In this document: positions 1 through 22,131 of the stretch, one piece after another
How the letters are laid out: the number at the start of each line of letters is the position of its first letter
Position numbering within the stretch: position 1 is the first letter of the stretch
From: Escherichia phage LF82-41
DNA: 64,000 nucleotides
Sequence record: PV660463
Strand: one strand, 5' to 3'
Program-made: the position numbers and the translations under genes
The notes under the pieces: model-generated
What the model saw: only the letters and a program-made list of their open reading frames with translations
Told to the model about the DNA's origin: nothing
Databases searched by the model: none

Positions 1-383
1 TCAATATAAAAACGTGGTTTATTAGGGTCTGCAGTGATATTGAAATTGAATTCTACATCAAAAGCGCCGTCATATCCAGTGATATCTGTGATTAGAAAAT
101 CACAATCATAATAAGCAATTAATGAATCAACCACAAATTCATTTTCAGACCAAAAATATTTACGAGTATTATACGCGTTATCTTTATACCATAATGGAAC
201 AAACTTAAATTCTGGGAAAAGACGTTCGCATTCTTTAATATCAGATGCATTACGTGGATATGTAATCACATCACCCGGATTAGCACGGTGCAAATGAAGT
301 TGGAAGTTGCCATCCTTAAGGATAGCATACTGTCCAGTTTCATAAGACCGCATACTCAAGATAGGTACGCGGAAAATAGCCAT
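1..383 (-). CDS. hypothetical protein, truncated by window edge (N-terminal ~127 aa present)
   Basis: ATG at 383..381 overlaps gene 42 stop as TAATG; open minus-strand frame runs to position 1 (MAIFRVPILSMRSYETGQYAILKDG...). Sits where T4 has beta-gt but shows no resemblance to it. Confidence 0.6.
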   Translation of the reverse strand, partial: MAIFRVPILSMRSYETGQYAILKDGNFQLHLHRANPGDVITYPRNASDIKECERLFPEFKFVPLWYKDNAYNTRKYFWSENEFVVDSLIAYYDCDFLITDITGYDGAFDVEFNFNITADPNKPRFYI

Positions 384-1099
384 TAGTCAAGGAATCCTTT
401 AACATAATCAAAATCACGTTCAAACACATGGGCACTTACCATGGTATGAGTATAATCACCAACTTCTACACCACATTCGTTAGCGATATAATGAAGTAAT
501 TTTCCTTGGAGATAAAAATCCAACTGCATAACAACAGCACAGTTCTGGGAACGCATATGACAGTGGGTATAAAGCTTACCGTCACGAATATAATAAGTCA
601 CTGAGTCAGTACATGGATATTCAAGCGTTTCGTCCGAATCAAGCAAAGCCTGATCAGAACTTTCTAAAATTTGGAACACAACTCTTCGAGAGTTAGGCTT
701 CTCTTTAAGTTCTTTTAGAAGAGCCGGTAATTGGGCCGCAATGCGAGGACCATAGAAAGTGTTGAAGTTCGCCGGCAAAGCATCCGATTTTGGTTTAGAA
801 ATAAATTTAGCGACATTAGGATATGCCTTAAACGCTTCTTCTGCATCAGTACCACCAGAAATCATAAACTTCCAGAAGTCTTCAGCATATTCATAAGAGA
901 TGCGGTTAATACGTGGGTCGGTCATTTTGAATGATGATGGAGTGTCAACAACTACTGTCATAGACCCAATTTCATTACAACGTCCAATACGAGAATCAGT
1001 TACGAATTCTGGGTTTTCTAAAATTTCACGATTGACTGCTTTAAATGCGGATTGAAAATCTGCGGCTTTGATATATTTCATTGTGTTATGTTTTCCCAT
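383..1099 (-). CDS. 42: dCMP hydroxymethylase (thymidylate-synthase family)
   Basis: 238 aa ORF; motifs SRR, YYIRD, HMRSQN, HVFERDF align with T4 gp42; position next to gene 43 region. Confidence 0.8.
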   Translation of the reverse strand: MGKHNTMKYIKAADFQSAFKAVNREILENPEFVTDSRIGRCNEIGSMTVVVDTPSSFKMTDPRINRISYEYAEDFWKFMISGGTDAEEAFKAYPNVAKFISKPKSDALPANFNTFYGPRIAAQLPALLKELKEKPNSRRVVFQILESSDQALLDSDETLEYPCTDSVTYYIRDGKLYTHCHMRSQNCAVVMQLDFYLQGKLLHYIANECGVEVGDYTHTMVSAHVFERDFDYVKGFLD

Positions 1100-1141: not shown

Positions 1142-1381
1142 TTATTTGAATTTCTTGGCAATGTTGGTATACCGTAAAGCTTCAGCATCGATACTTCCAA
1201 GAACACTGTGAAGAAATGCATCAGCGTAGTATTCCAATCGAACAGGTTCTTTAATCATTTTAGCCGCTTTGGTTTCAAACAGGCCCATAAGGGCCTTTTT
1301 AAGAATTTGTTCGCTGCTGTTAATTTTTATAGTCAAAATCTCTTCGTTAAGTTGGTGGTTAAAAGTTTTTCTAGAAATCAT
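1142..1381 (-). CDS. hypothetical protein (79 aa)
   Basis: ORF in same orientation, ATGA overlap with upstream gene; no recognisable motif. Confidence 0.55.
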   Translation of the reverse strand: MISRKTFNHQLNEEILTIKINSSEQILKKALMGLFETKAAKMIKEPVRLEYYADAFLHSVLGSIDAEALRYTNIAKKFK

Positions 1382-2538
1382 TCTGGGTACCTCAAAGCGT
1401 CATCAGAGTTAGTTATATCAATAATAGATATAGAGTTTTCTGCTAACCCGTTTTTAGATAACTGACGTTTATAATATCTTTCACAATATGTACACGTCGT
1501 CCCACAGATTTCATTAGCACAATCGAAATCTGGATGTCTGAACCACCTTTTTTCTAAAAAGCCATCTAACAAAGAGGTTTCAATATTTACTGTATGTGAA
1601 AACTCAGTTTCATTTTCAAGAGTGAAAATAGTCTCTAAAGGCTTCCACAGTTCTAACAAATTACCTTCAAACTTTTCAGAAGCGTATGCTTCAAGAACTT
1701 TCAAAATGTAGTCTGTGCTACCTGTACGTCCTGAAACTTTGAATTGAGTGATACCAATATCATTATAAAGTTTCAAATCTTGAGGACGAACAAAACGAGT
1801 TCTCAACCAGTTAAATGGGTCTGTATCACGAGCTTTAATACAGTGCTGCATAGGATACCCATTTAAGGATTTAGCATCATCAGCGGTAACATCAGTACTA
1901 TGGAAAATATAGCAAGAGTCACGATAACTACAATGTGTTGTATACCCTTTACCAGCATTAGAACAGAACTCATTTACAAGAACTTCAAATATTATATTGT
2001 TCTTATTGCAAAACTCTGCTGCACGCTTCAGGAAAGAAACTGAACGGTTCTTATGAATTCCGCAACAGACCTTTTTGATGTTATATTGGTCGTGCAAGTA
2101 TTTGATTTGAGTTACAGCATCGACATGTAGAATTGTTGAAACTTCAATCTCAATATCTTTATTGACTTCACGAACAATTTCCATAACAACAGGGTTAGCG
2201 ATAGTAATACGCCATACGCCTATTGACCAAAGATACTGAACATAATCCTGAATAGCTTTCTTCTTCCACTCAACTAGTTCTCTTTTTGAACCAGGATTTA
2301 TCGTGTTGAGTGTATAGTTAAAGCAAATACCTAATTCGTTACAACGTTTAACGTAGTCTTCTAACATCTTTTTGTCAACGTCAGGAAGCCTAAAATCAGG
2401 TCTGGCTGCTACAAAAGCCATTTCTCTTGTAGAGCCATATACTTCGTTTATCAAGCTATTAGGATAAGTTTTATTGAGCTCTACGATTTTATCAAGAAGA
2501 GCTAAATCAAAATTCGTTCCGATTTTAAAAGTATTCAT
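1378..2538 (-). CDS. Cys-rich enzyme of unknown function, possible peptidase-U32-family-like (Fe-S) fold
   Basis: 386 aa; segments NYTLNT, STILHVD, EVLVNEFCSNAGKGYTTHCSYRDSC, FKVSGR resemble U32-family blocks; C-terminal CxxxxCGTTCTYC cluster. Assignment by eye only. Confidence 0.85.
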   Translation of the reverse strand: MNTFKIGTNFDLALLDKIVELNKTYPNSLINEVYGSTREMAFVAARPDFRLPDVDKKMLEDYVKRCNELGICFNYTLNTINPGSKRELVEWKKKAIQDYVQYLWSIGVWRITIANPVVMEIVREVNKDIEIEVSTILHVDAVTQIKYLHDQYNIKKVCCGIHKNRSVSFLKRAAEFCNKNNIIFEVLVNEFCSNAGKGYTTHCSYRDSCYIFHSTDVTADDAKSLNGYPMQHCIKARDTDPFNWLRTRFVRPQDLKLYNDIGITQFKVSGRTGSTDYILKVLEAYASEKFEGNLLELWKPLETIFTLENETEFSHTVNIETSLLDGFLEKRWFRHPDFDCANEICGTTCTYCERYYKRQLSKNGLAENSISIIDITNSDDALRYPE

Positions 2539-2595: not shown

Positions 2596-2982
2596 TTATA
2601 GATTCGGTTTATATGATTTAAATGTTTCGAATTCGCCTTTATTCATAAGAGCTTTGAATTCGTCAGGACGCATAGCTTTGTCGTCGATAATCCAATCATA
2701 TACTGGTTTATGTGTTAGCAAATTATGGTACTTCAAACCAATGTTTTCCAAGTTCTGAATCAGACTTGGGAGAATGTCAATTGCTATACGTCCAGGACCT
2801 ACTGACTTCATACCGCGAGCAGTGTAAAGCGTTATGGTATGCCCTGCATCATACAGGGCATTAATGGCGGTCACCATTTCGACGTCTGGTTTGAAGTTCA
2901 CGTAATCACGATTGTTATTCCACTCTGTTATACAATCATCGACATCAAAACAAAGATTAAGCATGTTTTCTACACGGTGCAT
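2596..2982 (-). CDS. HAD-superfamily phosphatase (small)
   Basis: Motif I FDVDDCIT near N-terminus, motif II ITLYTAR, motif IV WIIDD; start ATG at 2982 couples to upstream stop as TAATG. Confidence 0.75.
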   Translation of the reverse strand: MHRVENMLNLCFDVDDCITEWNNNRDYVNFKPDVEMVTAINALYDAGHTITLYTARGMKSVGPGRIAIDILPSLIQNLENIGLKYHNLLTHKPVYDWIIDDKAMRPDEFKALMNKGEFETFKSYKPNL

Positions 2983-4667
2983 TAGATTCGTTCCCATTGA
3001 TGAGTGATATCGCCACCGATTGGACGATAAGAAACACCAGTTTCTTTATCAGTTAGTACCCATTTACCAGGATTTTTTGTAATCAGAGTAGCCGTTACAG
3101 GTTCTGCTACGTCATAACTAATAGAGCCGTCTTGAAGTACACGGCCCATGTTATGTAATTGCTTAGTCAGAAGTTCCATACCTTTATAATATGCGGCTAC
3201 CGCTTTAAGTGGATTATTCTTGAAATAACCACCTAATGCAATCCAGATAATTGCTACAGCCAAATGATGATACTCGTTAAACGAACTCATCTTTCCATAT
3301 TTGTAAACTAATGGATTGATGTTAATAGTCACATTACAAGTTGTTTCATCAATAGTAAACTGTCCCCAGGTCGGATTAGCATTGAATTCATCATAACCTG
3401 AAACAGCATAAAGCACTTTAGCTTCATCATATAATTTTGGCCCGTAAATCTTGGTTTCACCAAAATATCCACGAGGGTCGATAAACTTGACTTCGCCGTT
3501 ATCAGTAATCATAGTATTACTGAAGTTTGGGTCGCCGTGAATAACAGAGTACTGTCCCTGAGAACGGTTATGATAACGAATAAGATGTTCTAAAGCTTGT
3601 TTCAACATTGGCTTCAGACGTCCAATCTTAGTGTAGTTCACGTGTGTGATTTTACCAAATGAATCAATCAATGGCTGAATGCTTTCACAACGATCAATAA
3701 CTTTCGTATAGAACTCTTTAGTGAAATCACGGCGAACAGTTTCAGGACTTACAAAATAAGTGTCTGTGCTGAATTTCAGTGCATCTAAAATTGCATCAAC
3801 AATTTGTGGACGAGCAAGACTTGATTTGGATTTAATATATTCAAATGCCGGCTTACCTTTAATACGTTCCATTTCAAAATTATTTTCATTTACCGAAACT
3901 AACTGTGGAACTGAATCTGATTTCACTTTCAAATACCACGAAATCTCATCTTTCTGAAGAGCCCGTCCCTGTTCGGTTAATGCGAATTTAGTTACAGTTT
4001 CTTCACCAATTTCAACTGCATTAAAACTACGATTAAGTTCACGAACTTCATGAGCTTTTTCAAGTTTAGGCATATCACCTAAATCAATTATATTCATAAG
4101 CTCTGATTTATTGAATGCGCCGCTGTAAAGGAATTCTACGAAATCACGTCCTTTGCAGTATTCATGAATTTCCTCATCAGTAGAACCCATATAGAATTCC
4201 CAGTCTTTGAACTGATAAATTCCTACAACATTACCACCTGTTGAACCTACGTTAGTGATATTTTCACCGTCGAAATTATATCGACATTCGTCACCCTTAA
4301 CATAGATTGCGTTAACATTCCAAGACCATGAACCAAAATCAGGAATAATATCGCACCAGTTAACAACTACGTTATGGCCGTCTAAATCTTTATGTAATTT
4401 AGCAAGAGCATAAGCAGAACCATACGCTTCATCAACTGTACGAATAGTCACATTGAACCCTTCTTGCTCACAATAAGCTCGAACGGTTTCAGCAAATTTT
4501 GAATGAACTACTACAATAATTTCATCTGCGCCAAGGTCAGAATAAATTGTATACAAATTGCTCAGAATAGTGTCTTGTTTATAGTTAACAAGCACCTTAG
4601 GAATATGGTGAGTAATTGGATATAAACGAGTTGCTAATCCAGCACCAAGAATAACAGCTTTTTTCAT
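2982..4667 (-). CDS. bifunctional sugar-1-phosphate nucleotidyltransferase (N-term) / APH-type anomeric sugar kinase (C-term)
   Basis: 561 aa; N-term AVILGAGLATRLYPIT (RmlA/MurU-type G-x-G-T-R-L loop); C-term VIHGDPNFSNTMITDNGEVKFIDPRG (kinase HGD..N and D motifs, AmgK/LicA-like). Confidence 0.85.
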   Translation of the reverse strand: MKKAVILGAGLATRLYPITHHIPKVLVNYKQDTILSNLYTIYSDLGADEIIVVVHSKFAETVRAYCEQEGFNVTIRTVDEAYGSAYALAKLHKDLDGHNVVVNWCDIIPDFGSWSWNVNAIYVKGDECRYNFDGENITNVGSTGGNVVGIYQFKDWEFYMGSTDEEIHEYCKGRDFVEFLYSGAFNKSELMNIIDLGDMPKLEKAHEVRELNRSFNAVEIGEETVTKFALTEQGRALQKDEISWYLKVKSDSVPQLVSVNENNFEMERIKGKPAFEYIKSKSSLARPQIVDAILDALKFSTDTYFVSPETVRRDFTKEFYTKVIDRCESIQPLIDSFGKITHVNYTKIGRLKPMLKQALEHLIRYHNRSQGQYSVIHGDPNFSNTMITDNGEVKFIDPRGYFGETKIYGPKLYDEAKVLYAVSGYDEFNANPTWGQFTIDETTCNVTININPLVYKYGKMSSFNEYHHLAVAIIWIALGGYFKNNPLKAVAAYYKGMELLTKQLHNMGRVLQDGSISYDVAEPVTATLITKNPGKWVLTDKETGVSYRPIGGDITHQWERI

Positions 4668-4708: not shown

Positions 4709-4852
4709 CTAGTTAAAGCATTCATACTTTGCCTGTAGACCAATCATAATCCATCCAATTACAAGTGTTGGAATCATTACCGGAGCCGTTAAGCTCCAGT
4801 AGATAGTCATGACAAGCATCAATAGTAAAAGTCCTATTGTTATTGCTTTCAT
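4709..4852 (-). CDS. small hydrophobic membrane protein (47 aa), not in supplied ORF track
   Basis: ATG overlaps stop of isomerase gene (ATGA); translation MKAITIGLLLLMLVMTIYWSLTAPVMIPTLVIGWIMIGLQAKYECFN is predicted to span the membrane; fills otherwise empty 180 bp gap. Confidence 0.4.
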   Translation of the reverse strand: MKAITIGLLLLMLVMTIYWSLTAPVMIPTLVIGWIMIGLQAKYECFN

Positions 4853-5484
4853 TGCTCGCCTCGTAACATGGCACCTAGTGCACCGCCTGGATGGAACTTA
4901 AGGAAATCATTAGAGGTAAATCCACGTTCAGATGAAAGGTTGATAGCGAACGTATCGATAAGCGCTAACAACAATGTAGTAGACATCGTCGGAGCTAAAG
5001 AGTTCTCGTCAACTTCTACCGCGATACCGGTACAGAACGTATAATCAAAAAGAGCTTCGTATTCTTGTGGAATGTCAGGGTTACAATGTAACAGAATCTG
5101 TTTAACCTGAGGACGAATCATACGAAGATGTTTAGCAACACCTATCATTTCTTCAGTCTTACCGGAACGACTGATGTGAACTAATACATCATTAGGTGCA
5201 ATAAATCCTGCGTCACCATGAGAATAATGCCCAGTGTTCAAATACATGCTAGGAATACCTAGTGAAGCAAATGTCTCAGAAGCTTTAGTTGCAATATTAG
5301 CATTCTTACCAACACCTGTAATAATTACTCGGCTTTCATAATTACTCAGTCCAGGGCGTCGAAGAGTTTCTAGAATAGCATTATAACGAGCAGGGTTTTG
5401 ACTAATTACTTTGGCCATAGCGGCCAAAGAAGAAGCTTGTTTTATGATTGCGTCAATAGCGATAGTAATAGGAGTAGTTTTCAT
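4849..5484 (-). CDS. SIS-domain sugar-phosphate isomerase, KdsD/GutQ-like arabinose-5-phosphate isomerase (no CBS domains)
   Basis: 211 aa; VIITGVGKNANIATKASETFASLGIPSMYLNTGHYSHGDAGFI and C-terminal HPGGALG match KdsD SIS-domain blocks. Confidence 0.8.
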   Translation of the reverse strand: MKTTPITIAIDAIIKQASSLAAMAKVISQNPARYNAILETLRRPGLSNYESRVIITGVGKNANIATKASETFASLGIPSMYLNTGHYSHGDAGFIAPNDVLVHISRSGKTEEMIGVAKHLRMIRPQVKQILLHCNPDIPQEYEALFDYTFCTGIAVEVDENSLAPTMSTTLLLALIDTFAINLSSERGFTSNDFLKFHPGGALGAMLRGEQ

Positions 5485-5524
5485 ATTTCTCTCATTTAAT
5501 TAGTTTACCGTCCATGGCATTATA

Positions 5525-8236
5525 TCAAAAATCAAACATATCGAACAGAGATGCTTTCTTCTCGTAATCGAGTTTCGCTGCTGATGTGAATCCTTCAAGT
5601 GGTTTAATAAATGTCTTCTCAAGGAGAACAGTGTAGTCCATCCAATGAAGTACGTCGTCTTTAATTAAATCTGTGATTTCAGTACCAGAAGGCCATGCGA
5701 TACATTTATCACCGAACGGGTTTCCTTCACGTAAAGGCAGAACATATACTTTTTCACCTTCTACAACTTGTGGAGCATCAATATTACCTTTGATAGCTCG
5801 GTTATATGTCAGAATTCCACGAATATGGAACGGGCATTTGGGACCAGGGAATCCACCTACATCATATTTAGCAATGTTATTCGCAGAAGATACCGACGCG
5901 ATGCTAATATAATTCAATTGACGGAATTCTTTTTCAAACTCTTTAAAATATTCTTGTAATGATTCTTCACCTTCCTGAAGCATACGACGAATACATTCCT
6001 TAAGAGCTTTCTGTACTGCTTTAGGAGTCGAAGATTTCTGAGTCTCTAGACCCATGATTTTGAGTTTAGGCTCAGCGTAACGAGTACCTTCCATATCCCA
6101 CACGTTTAATGCATAACGTTTCTTACCAGTCCAGAATCCGCCAATACCTTTAGAACCAAGCGGAGGACCAGCGATAGCTTCTCGGTCCATGAACATTAAG
6201 TGTTGTTTATTGTTCATGTATTCACACATTTCACGGAAACCTTTATCAATAGCTGGTTCCATACGTTCACGTGCGAACTTATCTAAGAAGTCTACCCAAT
6301 GGTTGGTATCACGGAATTTAGATTCACCAACCTTATCGATAATTTTATCAGCAGATACGTAAATAGAGTCTGTATCACCATAAAGAACGAAAGCTTCACC
6401 TTCTGTACCACAAACTTCATTCAGATATTCATTAACTTTACGTTCAATCCACTGTAAAGCCATTTGACCAAATGTTGTGATTGCAGTAGCATTACGCAAA
6501 TCATAATAACGGAACCAAACGTTACCAAGTGCACCATAAAGCGAGTTGATGAGCAATTTACGGTTAATTTGTGCAGTCATACCTGCAACTTCAGTACGTT
6601 GAGCTCTAAACAACATTTCATTAAGAGATTTAGCAGACAACTTTTTAATCTTTTCTTTAATCTCATCGCTGAAGTCGAAACGATAATCAACATCTAATGG
6701 TTCGTCAACAGAAAGATTAGGATTATGCAATGCCTCTTTAATTATTTCACCATTACGTTGAGCTGCAAGCATGTAACCTTTATGTTCTTTACGTTGATTA
6801 AAGACCTTAGTGATTTCAGTTGGAACTACACCATCACGGTCTTTATAATACATCATGCCGTTAGGAGAGCAACTGTACACATCTGAAGGACGTTCAGCGA
6901 TTGCGTTAATATAATCATGCAGTGGAGCTACTTTAAACGTTCCTGCTATTGTTTCCGGGCTAATATTCACTTGGCGAATAATACTTGGATACAGGGATGT
7001 AAGGTCGAAACTCATTACATATTTGTATCGATTTGGAATAGGTTCCTTAACAAAAGCACCTGGATAAGGTTGAACCGGGTGAGAACGACCTTGTGGAATC
7101 ACCTTGCTCTGCTCTTTAAGGCTATTAAAAATAATAGCATCCCATGTTTTAATTGGGCTAAACACAGATTGAATCTGTATCTTAGCATAATAACCCATGT
7201 CCAAACTCAAGTTGATGAACTGACGCTTAGCATCAATTTGCAATACACGATACACGTCGATAATGTTATAAGAAATATACCGTTGGTGATTGCTTTCACG
7301 AAGCTTAGAAATAGGGCCGTCATATTTCAGTTTACCAACATTCAATTCAAATTCTGAAATGTAATCCAGAGAATACGACGGTTGATTGGTAAAAGAGAAT
7401 TTTTTGTAAAGGTCAATGTAATCAAGAACAGAGATACCGAACATTGTAATGATTTCACGAGAACCATACATGTTTTCGATAACTTTAACACGAGTTTTAC
7501 GATGTGGTGATAAACGTTTCGCAGTAGATTCGCCAAAAATATTCTTGATTCGGTTATACACATATGGAATATCAAATGACTCAACGTTCCATCCAGTCAA
7601 AATGACAGGAGTTTTCTGTTGCCAGAAGTTGAGATATTCCATCAACAATTCTTTTTCGTTATCGAACGGCATATAAATGATTTTATCGATAATTTCAGAT
7701 GGAACTTCATCACCGCCTTGTTCTTGAAGCTTAGCCGCAATTTCGATAGACCATTCTTCTACATTACCATACGGAGAATTCAATAGATCAAATACGTAGA
7801 ACCTGTCGTCAATTGAGTCATAATGGGTGATAGCATCAATCGGATGTTTTGCTTGTGACGGCTCAGGGAACCCATCCGGAGATGTTACTTCGATGTCGAA
7901 GTTAGCCACACGAATTTTTGTATGGTCGTATTTGATTTCATAGTTATAAGTGTCAGACAAATACGCCAATTTGAAATCGTCCATGCCAAGTGCTTCAAGT
8001 CCGATATCTTCCATGCGTTTAATCCATTGGGAGGCATCACGCATATTAGCGAACAACTTACGAGTACACGGTTTACCGTAGATATCGAAATATTTCGTAG
8101 CCTGACTTTCTGGACAATGAGCAAACAGTGATGGTTTATATTCTACTTCACGAGTACGTTCACGGCCATTAGAATCGATGTAACGTTCAAAAATTGAATC
8201 ACCAATCTGTTCAACCGTTAAGTAAAATTCTTTCAT
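5525..8236 (-). CDS. 43: DNA polymerase (family B)
   Basis: 903 aa; N-terminus MKEFYLTVEQIGDSIFERYID..., exonuclease and polymerase motifs (DIE, YGDTDS, KILINSLYG); synteny with regA/62/44/45. Confidence 0.97.
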   Translation of the reverse strand: MKEFYLTVEQIGDSIFERYIDSNGRERTREVEYKPSLFAHCPESQATKYFDIYGKPCTRKLFANMRDASQWIKRMEDIGLEALGMDDFKLAYLSDTYNYEIKYDHTKIRVANFDIEVTSPDGFPEPSQAKHPIDAITHYDSIDDRFYVFDLLNSPYGNVEEWSIEIAAKLQEQGGDEVPSEIIDKIIYMPFDNEKELLMEYLNFWQQKTPVILTGWNVESFDIPYVYNRIKNIFGESTAKRLSPHRKTRVKVIENMYGSREIITMFGISVLDYIDLYKKFSFTNQPSYSLDYISEFELNVGKLKYDGPISKLRESNHQRYISYNIIDVYRVLQIDAKRQFINLSLDMGYYAKIQIQSVFSPIKTWDAIIFNSLKEQSKVIPQGRSHPVQPYPGAFVKEPIPNRYKYVMSFDLTSLYPSIIRQVNISPETIAGTFKVAPLHDYINAIAERPSDVYSCSPNGMMYYKDRDGVVPTEITKVFNQRKEHKGYMLAAQRNGEIIKEALHNPNLSVDEPLDVDYRFDFSDEIKEKIKKLSAKSLNEMLFRAQRTEVAGMTAQINRKLLINSLYGALGNVWFRYYDLRNATAITTFGQMALQWIERKVNEYLNEVCGTEGEAFVLYGDTDSIYVSADKIIDKVGESKFRDTNHWVDFLDKFARERMEPAIDKGFREMCEYMNNKQHLMFMDREAIAGPPLGSKGIGGFWTGKKRYALNVWDMEGTRYAEPKLKIMGLETQKSSTPKAVQKALKECIRRMLQEGEESLQEYFKEFEKEFRQLNYISIASVSSANNIAKYDVGGFPGPKCPFHIRGILTYNRAIKGNIDAPQVVEGEKVYVLPLREGNPFGDKCIAWPSGTEITDLIKDDVLHWMDYTVLLEKTFIKPLEGFTSAAKLDYEKKASLFDMFDF

Positions 8237-19846: not shown

Positions 19847-20317
19847 TTAATCATGTTTCCACACCCCATCGGTATTTGACCAAAGCCGCTGATTATCTGA
19901 TCCTCGCCACAGCTTTTTAGTCGGAAGATTTTTCTCATACTTCCCATCAATAATAACATCAACATATTTAAGCATTTCTAGTTGTTTAATATCTTCAAAC
20001 TTATATCCTGTCCACAACCAAATGCTTTTATTGGGATAAAGATTTTTTACTGTTTGAGCAATGCAATGAATAACAACTCGGTTATCAGGATAGAGAGGGT
20101 CACCTCCGGTTATAGTTAATCCTTCTATATAATCATTATTCAAATATTCAATTAATTGTTCTAGTGTTTCACCAGTGAATGGAATACCATTTCTAGCATT
20201 CCATGTTGATTTATTATAACACCCTTCGCATTTATGCAAACAACCCGTAACGAAAAGAACGACCCTGCATCCCGGGCCATTCACAAAATCGCAAGGATAA
20301 AATCTATCATAATTCAT
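19847..20317 (-). CDS. nrdG: anaerobic ribonucleotide reductase activating protein (radical SAM)
   Basis: 156 aa; CxxxCxxC-type cluster (FVTGCLHKCEGCYN); directly downstream of nrdD. Confidence 0.9.
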   Translation of the reverse strand: MNYDRFYPCDFVNGPGCRVVLFVTGCLHKCEGCYNKSTWNARNGIPFTGETLEQLIEYLNNDYIEGLTITGGDPLYPDNRVVIHCIAQTVKNLYPNKSIWLWTGYKFEDIKQLEMLKYVDVIIDGKYEKNLPTKKLWRGSDNQRLWSNTDGVWKHD

Positions 20318-22131
20318 TGGTGTTTAACCCTATGCATGATTTCTTTATTTTTACCGAGATTAAATCCGCGTTCGTTCGGATTTCCTAAATAACCGCATGT
20401 TCTTCTTATGGTGTTCATCTTTTTAGGATCAGTTTCTCCGCAAACTGAACAAACAAATCCGTTTTCAGTAGGAGTCATTTCATGGGTACTTCCACATGTA
20501 AAACATTTATCCACTGGCATATTAACACCAAAATAATCTAAATGTTGTGCAGCATAATCCCAGACGGCCTCAAGTCCCTTTAAATTGTTTTTCATATCTG
20601 GAAGTTCAACATAAGAAATGTGACCACCTGTCGCAATGAAATGATATGGCGCTTCACGAGAAATCTTTTCAAACGGAGTAATATTTTCTTCTACTGAAAC
20701 GTGGAAACTGTTAGTGTACCAGCCTTTATCGGTAACATCTTTTACACTTCCATATTTTTCTGTATCGAGTTTACAGAAGCGATAACAAAGGTTTTCAGCA
20801 GGAGTAGAATACAAACTAAAAGCAAAACCAGTTCTTTCAGTCCACTGTTTAAGATGAGCATTCATTTTAGTTAAAATTTCTTGTCCAATATCACGACCAA
20901 CAAGAATATTCAATTCATGAATACCGATGTATCCTAAAGACACTGAACTTCTACCGTTTTTAAATAACTCAATTATATCGTCATCAGGTTTAAGACGAAC
21001 CCCGAATGCACCTTCTTGGTAAAGAATAGGAGCAACAGTCGCTTTAACTCCTTTTAAGGAACTAATTCTACATATCAAAGCTTCAAAACATAAATCCATT
21101 CGTTCATTGAATAATTCAACAAATTTCTGTTCATTGAACTGTGTTCCAATATAAGAATCTAATGCGATGCGAGGAAGATTCAGTGTTACAACACCGAGAT
21201 TATTACGTCCATCAAGAATTTCATTACCAGTCGAATCTTTCCATACGCTCAAGAAACTACGGCAGCCCATTGGAGAAACCGGAACTGAAGAACCAGTAAT
21301 AGCTTTATTATTCTTAACCGAAATAATGTCAGGATACATTCTTTTGCTTGCACATTCTAACGCAAGTTGTTTAATATCATAGTTCGGATCATCTTTATAA
21401 AGATTAACACCTTCTTCAACAAACATAACAAGTTTAGGAAAAATAGGAGTTATCCCATCACGACCAAGACCTTTAATGCGGTTTTTAAGAATTGCCTTCT
21501 GAATCATTCGTTCAGTCCAATCGGTTCCCGTACCAAATGTAATTGTTACAAAAGGCGTTTGTCCGTTTGAACTAAAGAGAGTATTTACTTCATATTCATA
21601 AGCTTGGAATGCATCGTATACGTCTTTTTCTGTTTTAGATTGAGCATAATTCAACGCATCAGCTATTTGCCATTTTTCTGCATCCTCAATATGTTTTGCA
21701 TAGGTGCGTTTAACATAAGGAGAAAGTACTTTATCTACATTAGCAAAAGTCGTTCCGCCGTATTGATGTGAAGCAACCTGTGCAGTAATTTGTGCCATAA
21801 TTGCAGTAGCAACACCAATCGATTTAGGCGTTTCAATTTGAGCATTGCCTAATTTAAATCCATTCTCAAGCATCCCCTTTAAATCGACTAAACAGCAATT
21901 AGTAAATGGAAGAGCAGGAGAATAATCAATATCATGCATATGAATGATTCCGCTTTCATGCGCATTCATAATAAAAGACGGGACCATATTTTTGGCAATG
22001 TGCTTAGACACAATACCAGCCATAAGGTCCCGTTGAGTTGGAAAAACACGAGAATCTTTATTAGCATTCTCGTTTAAAAGGTCTTTATTAGTTTTATGAA
22101 TTAATCCTTCAATTTCTTTTTCAATTTTCAT
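20314..22131 (-). CDS. nrdD: anaerobic ribonucleoside-triphosphate reductase, intron-less
   Basis: 605 aa; C-terminal CxxC...CxxC zinc site and glycyl-radical region; continuous ORF. Confidence 0.95.
   Translation of the reverse strand: MKIEKEIEGLIHKTNKDLLNENANKDSRVFPTQRDLMAGIVSKHIAKNMVPSFIMNAHESGIIHMHDIDYSPALPFTNCCLVDLKGMLENGFKLGNAQIETPKSIGVATAIMAQITAQVASHQYGGTTFANVDKVLSPYVKRTYAKHIEDAEKWQIADALNYAQSKTEKDVYDAFQAYEYEVNTLFSSNGQTPFVTITFGTGTDWTERMIQKAILKNRIKGLGRDGITPIFPKLVMFVEEGVNLYKDDPNYDIKQLALECASKRMYPDIISVKNNKAITGSSVPVSPMGCRSFLSVWKDSTGNEILDGRNNLGVVTLNLPRIALDSYIGTQFNEQKFVELFNERMDLCFEALICRISSLKGVKATVAPILYQEGAFGVRLKPDDDIIELFKNGRSSVSLGYIGIHELNILVGRDIGQEILTKMNAHLKQWTERTGFAFSLYSTPAENLCYRFCKLDTEKYGSVKDVTDKGWYTNSFHVSVEENITPFEKISREAPYHFIATGGHISYVELPDMKNNLKGLEAVWDYAAQHLDYFGVNMPVDKCFTCGSTHEMTPTENGFVCSVCGETDPKKMNTIRRTCGYLGNPNERGFNLGKNKEIMHRVKHQ

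Follow-up and report, generated by a model that had tools for sequence, protein, structure and literature searches.

What does a protein of the U32 family contribute to a gene cassette devoted to the modification of cytosine? This question is raised by Escherichia phage LF82-41 (sequence record PV660463), of which we analysed a stretch of 64,000 nucleotides (hereafter, the window). The window belongs to a Mosigvirus, an RB69-like T-even coliphage, and over its first 6 kb it shares 97.5-98% identity with many Mosigvirus genomes. An open reading frame (ORF) at positions 1378-2538 encodes a protein of 386 amino acids that is 99.5% identical to RB69p050 (gp50) of phage RB69, whose record label is 'peptidase'. 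We propose, with a probability of roughly 0.55, that gp50 is an O2-independent, prephenate-dependent Fe-S hydroxylase of cytosine C5, which would supply 5-hydroxy-deoxycytidine monophosphate (5-hydroxy-dCMP) under anoxia.

Lee et al. (Nucleic Acids Research 2026, PMC13326640) reported that RB69 DNA contains arabinosylated 5-hydroxycytosine and not hydroxymethylcytosine. In that work, the ThyA homolog gp48 formed 5-hydroxy-dCMP, with flavin bound and 18O incorporated from O2. The proteins gp55, gp52:53 and gp51 accounted for nucleoside diphosphate (NDP)-arabinose, and the full replacement of cytosine took place at the level of the nucleotide pool (PMC13326640). An earlier reading of the window, made from the sequence alone (hereafter, the original prediction), had placed the U32 gene beside a cytosine-C5 modification pathway. 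This adjacency is real and meaningful, but the hydroxymethylation assumed in the original prediction is actually a hydroxylation (PMC13326640). Because the phage base is 5-hydroxycytosine, hydroxylation of pyrimidine C5 by the U32 protein becomes the leading hypothesis; the original prediction had remarked on this activity of the family without drawing the consequence.

Those U32 proteins that have been characterised are tied to hydroxylation without O2. RlhA introduces 5-hydroxycytidine into rRNA and requires prephenate and an Fe-S cluster; its residues C169 and C176 are essential, and so are its C-terminal Cys residues (PMC5727448). UbiU and UbiV, which hydroxylate ubiquinone under anoxia with prephenate as oxygen donor, are the counterparts of flavin- and O2-dependent monooxygenases (PMC10990095), and TrhP and TrhO form a pair of O2-independent and O2-dependent enzymes (PMC6599085). 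RB69p050 itself appears in the study of Lee et al. in Table 1 only, as a 'sugar or heterocycle reductase' with a fold match to 5d88, and is not discussed. RlhA and TrhP figure in their Discussion as unrelated routes of pyrimidine hydroxylation, with no remark on a kinship with gp50 (PMC13326640). The gene is likewise undiscussed in the Thanatos, Durham, BASEL and Thomas et al. papers. Our literature search, which was incomplete, gave no paper that connects phage 5-hydroxycytosine with U32, with chorismate mutase or with prephenate, and we do not assert priority.

Sequence and predicted fold of gp50

The original prediction had assigned the protein to the U32 family by eye, from the motifs NYTLNT and FKVSGR and from its clustered Cys residues, all of which were found in the ORF. 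A search with the Pfam hidden Markov model (HMM) bore this assignment out. The match to PF01136 (Peptidase_U32) reached 42.2 bits against a gathering threshold of 22.4 (E 7.3e-11) and covered amino acids 94-286, corresponding to profile positions 2-192 of 233. A precomputed PF01136 match was also on record for nearly all of the 120 homologs listed, three being without one. The predicted structural model (predicted local distance difference test, pLDDT, 92.4) is a TIM barrel like that of the solved U32 protein Mk0906, and its best match is 5d88. Among the structural matches of the model there was no GT-A or GT-B fold, the Rossmann-type folds of glycosyltransferases; the option that this protein is the glycosyltransferase of the cassette was thereby abandoned.

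None of the characterised members proved to be an ortholog. The only NCBIfam match was to UbiU, with 18.5 bits against an equivalog cutoff of 440, and direct alignment of the family HMM to E. coli UbiU, UbiV, RlhA and TrhP gave fragmentary results of at most 15 bits. Within this set of four, TrhP had the best hmmsearch score, which was weak. Searches by single sequence or by profile gave no sequence-level link to solved structures; a match to BIM1 in the sequence-versus-structure search was rejected as spurious. The classical U32 signature, which we take to be E-x-F-x2-G-[SA]-[LIVM]-C-x4-G-x-C-x-[LIVM]-S, was found in UbiU, RlhA and TrhP at residues 161/162, and was matched neither by the window protein nor by UbiV. 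In its place, gp50 has NEFC192-x10-C203-x5-C209 and therefore belongs to a divergent U32 subfamily. This subfamily has 482 representatives at E <=1e-30 among 1.84 billion proteins. Many records label them 'peptidase', 'collagenase-like protease' or 'putative protease', and in phage AlbertHofmann the gene is called a 'putative enzyme involved in UDP-arabinose biosynthesis'. Judged from profile and predicted fold, the gene encodes a divergent U32 protein and not a sugar transferase, and we infer that this protein binds Fe-S.

Conserved residues and selection

Thirteen Cys residues are present in gp50, clustered at positions 192/203/209/233 and 340/345/349/352. Among 121 homologs with identities down to about 49%, C158, C192, C203, C209, C233, C340, C345, C349 and C352 are invariant, and C177 is kept in 98%. 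In a deeper set of 128 representatives, N78, K267 and R271 are 100% conserved and C192 and C233 at least 98%; the C-terminal CX4CX3CX2C group is conserved at 84-88%, the rest being mostly gaps. Few positions of the family are as strongly conserved as the NYTLNT and FKVSGR motifs, whose counterparts in the alignment with E. coli RlhA and TrhP are TLN and FKIEGR. The stretch RDSC209YIFH aligns with SGQC176YISH of RlhA and with C180 of UbiV. Relative to the classical signature, the window protein carries an inserted segment, which brings in the additional invariant Cys192.

Comparison with AlbertHofmann revealed 17 synonymous and no nonsynonymous differences in the U32 gene. By this count, purifying selection on the gene is strong among Mosigviruses.

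U32 relatives at distant loci

The IMG/VR sample comprised 52 loci with U32 relatives, of which 15 T4-like and 32 distant loci (37-55% identity) were compared. Neighbouring genes were counted by unbiased clustering of the ORFs around U32. A DNA glycosyltransferase of the gp46:47 type was present at 23 of the 32 distant loci and at all 15 T4-like loci, and an AfhE-like enzyme at 16 and 15, respectively. The SIS isomerase was found at 9/32 and 11/15. Two kinds of Tmk-like kinase, type A (12/32) and type B (7/32), were confined to the distant set (0/15 for both). The ThyA-type enzyme accompanied U32 at every T4-like locus and, within 10 kb, at a single distant one. At the distant loci, U32 is co-directional with the DNA glycosyltransferase, the kinase and the other neighbours counted. 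In other contexts, U32 is accompanied by dCMP deaminase, NT5C, deoxynucleoside kinase (dNK) and nucleoside deoxyribosyltransferase. Six of the distant loci have a minimal kinase-glycosyltransferase-U32 module with neither of the NDP-arabinose genes (AfhE or SIS), which argues against a role in sugar metabolism. Judging by these neighbourhoods, U32 appears to occupy the slot of the hydroxylase at the distant loci.

Several other features of these loci were recorded. The ThyA-family gene of the one distant locus that has it near U32 (L028:5509-6360) scores 243.6 bits as a classical thymidylate synthase; its product might make 5-hydroxy-dCMP, act as a hydroxymethylase or be an ordinary ThyA. After the AfhE-like gene, L049 (16570-17172) and 15 further distant loci encode members of a family of about 200 amino acids that has no Pfam match (cluster c3). 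Some loci hold it twice, and it frequently stands right before U32; it may be the counterpart of the AfhF phosphatase. A cluster with two U32 paralogs was seen in L007:8001-14360, a bacterial-looking ENA contig, and in L066. This cluster also encodes NT5C, a nicotinamide mononucleotide (NMN) transporter, a deoxynucleoside kinase, an AlaX-like protein, a radical SAM/SPASM protein and a nucleoside deoxyribosyltransferase, and may represent a cellular pathway of deoxynucleoside modification.

Linkage to chorismate mutase and DAHP synthase

In Enterobacter phage Entb_45, the 79-amino-acid gene between U32 and the ThyA homolog encodes an AroQ chorismate mutase (CM; PF01817, 40.9 bits against a gathering threshold of 27). 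By tblastn, the CM gene was found in 56 phage records, always adjoining the ThyA homolog or U32, and in most of the related phage genera it lies between the two. The genera include phages of Klebsiella, Serratia (among them LC53 and 92A1), Yersinia, Edwardsiella, Erwinia, Pectobacterium, Proteus, Providencia, Morganella and Shewanella. CM was present at 13 of the 15 T4-like IMG/VR loci. At 12 of the 32 distant loci, a CM, a DAHP synthase or a fusion of both lies within 10 kb of U32 in the same direction, mostly abutting it; genes of these types also abut U32 in L009, L065, L068 and L071. In a Logan contig, the gene that comes immediately after U32 is of the DAHP_synth_1 type. In the window itself, custom HMMs applied to stop-to-stop ORFs detected no CM or DAHP synthase elsewhere.

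Both domains of the DAHP_synth_1+CM_2 fusions were confirmed by Pfam. Fusions of a DAHP synthase (PF00793) with a C-terminal AroQ CM (PF01817) are encoded in IMG/VR at L041:8332-9387, L051:11079-12197, L037:8411-9433 and L040:7302-8357. These viral fusions always stand next to a U32 gene and look like auxiliary genes of the shikimate pathway.

In the window, the place between U32 and the ThyA homolog is taken by gp49, a small ORF that is, as judged from the overlap of its start codon with the U32 stop codon, translationally coupled to U32. We considered whether gp49 is a diverged AroQ CM and rejected it: gp49 has no Pfam or NCBIfam match and no BLASTP alignment to the CM of Entb_45, its hhalign probability against the phage CM family is 0.3%, and some Yersinia and Pectobacterium phages carry both genes. 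In Yersinia phage TG1 and Pectobacterium phage PM2, gp49 lies between U32 and the true CM. With 4 synonymous and 7 nonsynonymous differences from AlbertHofmann, gp49 is weakly constrained and fast-evolving, and many full-length Mosigvirus genomes have it in shortened forms of 47-58 amino acids.

Distribution of U32 in relation to oxygen

The ThyA-type enzyme was found in 373 phage records, including 57 of Acinetobacter and 20 of Rhizobium phages. U32 was found in 221 phage records, and neither Acinetobacter nor Rhizobium is among the genera listed, so that each accounts for at most three. Phage Maestro has the ThyA-type pathway and no U32. In a scan of a collection of about 100,000 species genomes, close members of the U32 subfamily occurred in seven, all of anaerobic lineages: Romboutsia (two), Erysipelotrichales, Lachnospiraceae, a metagenome-assembled genome (MAG) of Bacillota, BRC1 and Phocaeicola faecalis. 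Several of the anaerobe-associated loci hold modules of U32, CM and glycosyltransferase, in part with AfhE and kinase, and no ThyA-type gene nearby.

Proposed function and rival explanations

According to our proposal, gp50 would hydroxylate cytosine at C5 without O2, most likely at the level of dCMP, with prephenate as the presumed oxygen donor. The conserved Cys residues would hold one or two [4Fe-4S] clusters that take away two electrons. gp50 would thus provide a second route to 5-hydroxy-dCMP, the precursor of arabinosylated DNA, at times when the adjacent flavin/O2-dependent ThyA-type synthase would be idle in a host growing anoxically. In this Mosigvirus, prephenate would have to be drawn from the host enzymes PheA or TyrA, as it is for the host's own RlhA, TrhP and UbiUV; related phages encode their own CM or a fusion of DAHP synthase and CM. 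Indirect support for the use of prephenate comes from these CM and DAHP-synthase neighbours of U32, and indirect support for activity without O2 comes from the absence of U32 in phages of strict aerobes, its presence in anaerobe-associated contigs and the nrdD and nrdG genes of the window.

A broader version of the proposal is tentative, and we put its chances a little below even. It holds that viral U32 proteins make 5-hydroxypyrimidine deoxynucleotides with prephenate as the organic oxygen donor. In phages of obligate anaerobes, they would be the sole source of the hydroxyl group for DNA glycosylation, and the phages' own DAHP synthase and CM would push the host's shikimate flux towards prephenate. 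Those T4-like phages that infect facultative anaerobes would keep both U32 and the O2/flavin-dependent ThyA-type synthase as a pair that can be switched by oxygen.

Several observations weigh against the proposal. Hydroxylase activity has never been directly reconstituted for any U32 protein (PMC10990095), and we found no biochemical or genetic test of gp50 in the literature searched. The canonical C-x6-C signature of U32 is not exactly matched, and C203 and C209 are conserved in only about 60% of the 128 deep representatives. The window, as searched with HMMs, and all Mosigviruses, as searched by tblastn, lack CM, so that the strongest evidence of linkage comes from relatives. KDO8P synthases, enzymes that use arabinose-5-phosphate, fall under PF00793 too. 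Those DAHP-synthase-like genes that stand alone might therefore encode sugar enzymes, but the fusions with CM speak against this. The absence of a ThyA-type gene at the distant loci was judged within 8-10 kb only, the assignment of metagenomic contigs and MAG bins to hosts is uncertain, and the phyletic pattern reflects few clades and not independent events. In addition, U32 is missing from Dhakaviruses (e.g. JS98), whose host E. coli is a facultative anaerobe. A strict rule by which the oxygen lifestyle of the host predicts U32 was thus ruled out. Since the Dhakavirus pathway does without it, U32 is accessory, is not required in E. coli and is not set by host lifestyle alone.

All rival explanations were ranked below cytosine hydroxylation. 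The one closest to the existing labels is that U32 tailors the sugar or sugar nucleotide, for instance as a reductase or epimerase in the formation of NDP-arabinose. The gene does lie inside the sugar cassette, between the phosphatase and the ThyA homolog, TIM barrels are common among sugar-phosphate enzymes, and the AfhE-like and SIS genes at the distant loci as well as the annotations in AlbertHofmann and in Table 1 of Lee et al. (PMC13326640) agree with such a role. However, the original prediction was right that the route to the NDP-pentose does not need this protein to be complete: the isomerase, the AfhE-like enzyme, the phosphatase, the ThyA homolog and the glycosyltransferase are all encoded by JS98 and Maestro, which have no U32. 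Phage DLP3, whose cluster as described by Lee et al. contains no U32, makes arabinosylated 5-hydroxycytosine (PMC13326640). The extra tailoring step that the original prediction had offered is unlikely; Lee et al. place phages without U32 among those with arabinosyl-5-hydroxycytosine (PMC13326640). The six minimal modules point the same way, no characterised U32 enzyme has a sugar as substrate (PMC10990095, PMC6599085), and a sugar role leaves the linkage to CM and DAHP synthase unaccounted for. Less probable again is that U32 hydroxylates cytosine in polymerised DNA after replication instead of dCMP. Both characterised pyrimidine-hydroxylating U32 proteins act on RNA polymers (PMC5727448, PMC6599085), and the glycosyltransferase to which the gene is linked has DNA as its substrate. 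Against this, gp50 has the barrel and a small Cys cluster only, lacking the long C-terminal extensions of RlhA (653 amino acids) and TrhP (453 amino acids). It is also linked to genes resembling deoxynucleoside monophosphate kinases and to dCMP deaminase, NT5C and dNK, and in RB69 the complete replacement of cytosine is brought about in the nucleotide pool (PMC13326640).

We consider it improbable that U32 is an Fe-S electron-transfer partner, such as a flavin reductase, of the ThyA-type 5-hydroxy-dCMP synthase. Such a role would fit its position near gp48, which needs reduced flavin (PMC13326640), a number of conserved Cys residues sufficient for two clusters and the 'heterocycle reductase' of Lee et al. 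(PMC13326640), but 31 of the 32 distant loci and the anaerobe-associated loci have no ThyA-type gene nearby, many phages run gp48-type enzymes without U32, and the linkage to CM would again lack an explanation. Very improbable is a role unrelated to DNA modification, in which U32 hydroxylates host or phage RNA (tRNA U34 or rRNA C2501) and thereby tunes translation. The nearest relatives that have been characterised are known to act in this way (PMC5727448, PMC6599085), and the weak best hmmsearch score was to TrhP. Nevertheless, the gene is embedded in operons for DNA modification and deoxynucleotides across distant phages, its product has no RNA-binding extension, and the host already owns TrhP and RlhA. 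Finally, a function as peptidase or collagenase hardly merits credence: so annotated in many records, the gene owes these labels to name propagation, its context is nucleotide metabolism, and the characterised members are tied to hydroxylation, with authors disputing the protease role (PMC10990095, PMC5727448).

Neighbouring genes in the window

The order of genes on the minus strand is gp43 DNA polymerase, SIS isomerase, nucleotidyltransferase-kinase, HAD phosphatase, U32 ORF, 79-amino-acid ORF and ThyA homolog, as in RB69 from gene 56 down to gene 48 (Table 1). The ThyA homolog is 99.6% identical to RB69 ORF048c. In AlbertHofmann (locus L001), the coding sequence of the arabinosyltransferase (5484-6383) abuts that of the ThyA homolog; the role of gp46:47 as DNA arabinosyltransferase is a proposal in Table 1 of Lee et al. 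(PMC13326640). The AfhE-like gene is one intact ORF of 561 amino acids in the window. The RB69 reference record shows it in two parts, ORF052c and ORF053c, a break that Lee et al. put down to a sequencing error (PMC13326640).

Table 1. Positions of the features in the window.
Feature	Position	Strand	Basis
gp46:47-type DNA arabinosyltransferase (proposed), 5' part; gene extends past the window start	1..383	-	alignment to AlbertHofmann
ThyA-family 5-hydroxy-dCMP synthase, RB69 gp48 ortholog, flavin/O2-dependent	383..1099	-	Pfam Thymidylat_synt; function from PMC13326640
gp49, 79 amino acids, Cys-free	1142..1381	-	start codon overlaps U32 stop (ATGA)
U32-family protein, 386 amino acids, ATG start, RB69 gp50 (RB69p050) ortholog; predicted Fe-S	1378..2538	-	ORF
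Codons of Cys340-x4-Cys345-x3-Cys349-x2-Cys352 (C-terminal); candidate second Fe-S site	1483..1521	-	conservation
FKVSGR motif, amino acids 266-271 (FKIEGR of canonical U32)	1726..1743	-	alignment
Codons of Cys192, Cys203, Cys209 and Cys233; predicted variant U32 Fe-S motif NEFC-x10-C-x5-C-x23-C	1840..1965	-	alignment
NYTLNT motif, amino acids 74-79	2302..2319	-	aligns with RlhA FVTLNT
HAD-type phosphatase, RB69 gp51 / AfhF analog	2596..2997	-	TIGR01689, PHROG 1238; role from literature
Bifunctional nucleotidyltransferase and kinase, RB69 gp52:53 / AfhE analog	2982..4667	-	NTP_transferase domain and kinase-like C-terminus; role from literature
Arabinose-5-phosphate isomerase, RB69 gp55 ortholog	4849..5484	-	SIS domain; KpsF and KdsD family matches
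nrdG, radical-SAM activase of anaerobic ribonucleotide reductase	19847-20317	-	Fer4_12 and Radical_SAM
nrdD, class III anaerobic ribonucleotide reductase	20314-22131	-	Pfam NRDD 569.6 bits and Gly_radical

A promoter-like site (TTTAAA-16-TATAAT, 10/12 matches) lies directly upstream of the U32 start at 2595-2622 on the minus strand. The scan of the region for promoters and terminators did not rise above chance, with 17 promoter-like sites compared to 21.4 expected from shuffled sequences. In phage OLB35, U32 is recorded as two 'peptidase' fragments (BFVD A0A3G3MCS7, 269 amino acids, and A0A3G3MCT7, 108 amino acids), which are 99-100% identical to the window protein and point to a frameshift or a sequencing error in the record. 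The nrdG/nrdD pair (19847-22131) is located 17 kb away from the U32 gene; with it, the phage is equipped for anoxic replication, which we take as context only. NrdD is present in 2,906 phage records, and Acinetobacter is outside the top ten genera.

Significance and comparison with known systems

The linkage to CM and DAHP synthase, the scarcity of ThyA-type genes at distant loci, the oxygen pattern, the conservation of the Cys residues and the purifying selection on the gene are new here. If the proposal is true, it explains how phages of anoxic gut hosts obtain DNA with hydroxylated bases, for which the only known synthase needs O2. Prephenate-dependent hydroxylation, known from RNA and quinones, would then reach DNA precursors and viruses as well, and phages would import shikimate-pathway genes for a cofactor-like purpose. 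gp50 would be the first U32 enzyme to act on a free nucleotide or DNA precursor, and a soluble single chain of 386 amino acids with dCMP as substrate would be far easier to reconstitute in vitro than systems that act on rRNA, tRNA or octaprenylphenol. Modules of U32, CM, DNA glycosyltransferase and kinase could mark undiscovered hypermodified DNA in phages of anaerobes. The proposed function would also be of relevance to phage therapy and to the evasion of defences in the gut.

Of the characterised proteins, RlhA (YdcP), the 5-hydroxycytidine-2501 synthase of E. coli 23S rRNA, is the nearest in chemistry: it belongs to the same Pfam family, the proposed reaction at cytosine C5 is the same, and like gp50 it combines the Cys residues of the U32 motif with a C-terminal Cys group. 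However, sequence similarity between them is marginal, and RlhA is a protein of 653 amino acids acting on pre-50S rRNA, whereas gp50 is viral and encoded in an operon for DNA precursors. The spacing differs as well, being C169-x6-C176-x15-C192-x3-C196 in RlhA and C-x5-C with the extra invariant Cys192 and Cys233 in gp50. The solved U32 protein Mk0906 of Methanopyrus kandleri (5d88) is only 14% identical to gp50, has 247 amino acids and lacks the region of the C-terminal Cys cluster. The ThyA-type synthase (RB69 gp48, DLP3 gp80 and the HY126 enzyme) makes the product that we propose for gp50 and is encoded two genes away, but its fold is unrelated, it uses flavin and O2, and it is found in phages of strict aerobes that lack U32.

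Two bacterial systems show the arrangement that we propose for gp50 and gp48. TrhP and TrhO, a prephenate-dependent U32 protein and an O2-dependent enzyme, yield the same product, 5-hydroxyuridine at position 34 of tRNA (ho5U34), and are kept together by organisms living in both oxygen regimes (PMC6599085). Their substrate is a tRNA uridine, and the O2-dependent partner is rhodanese-like and not a ThyA homolog. UbiU-UbiV act on a small molecule, with one [4Fe-4S] cluster per subunit and two per functional unit (PMC10990095). They form a heterodimer to which UbiT presents the lipid substrate, whereas gp50 carries both Cys groups on a single chain. Under anaerobic conditions, UbiU-UbiV replace UbiI, UbiH and UbiF, and by the same logic gp50 would stand in for gp48.

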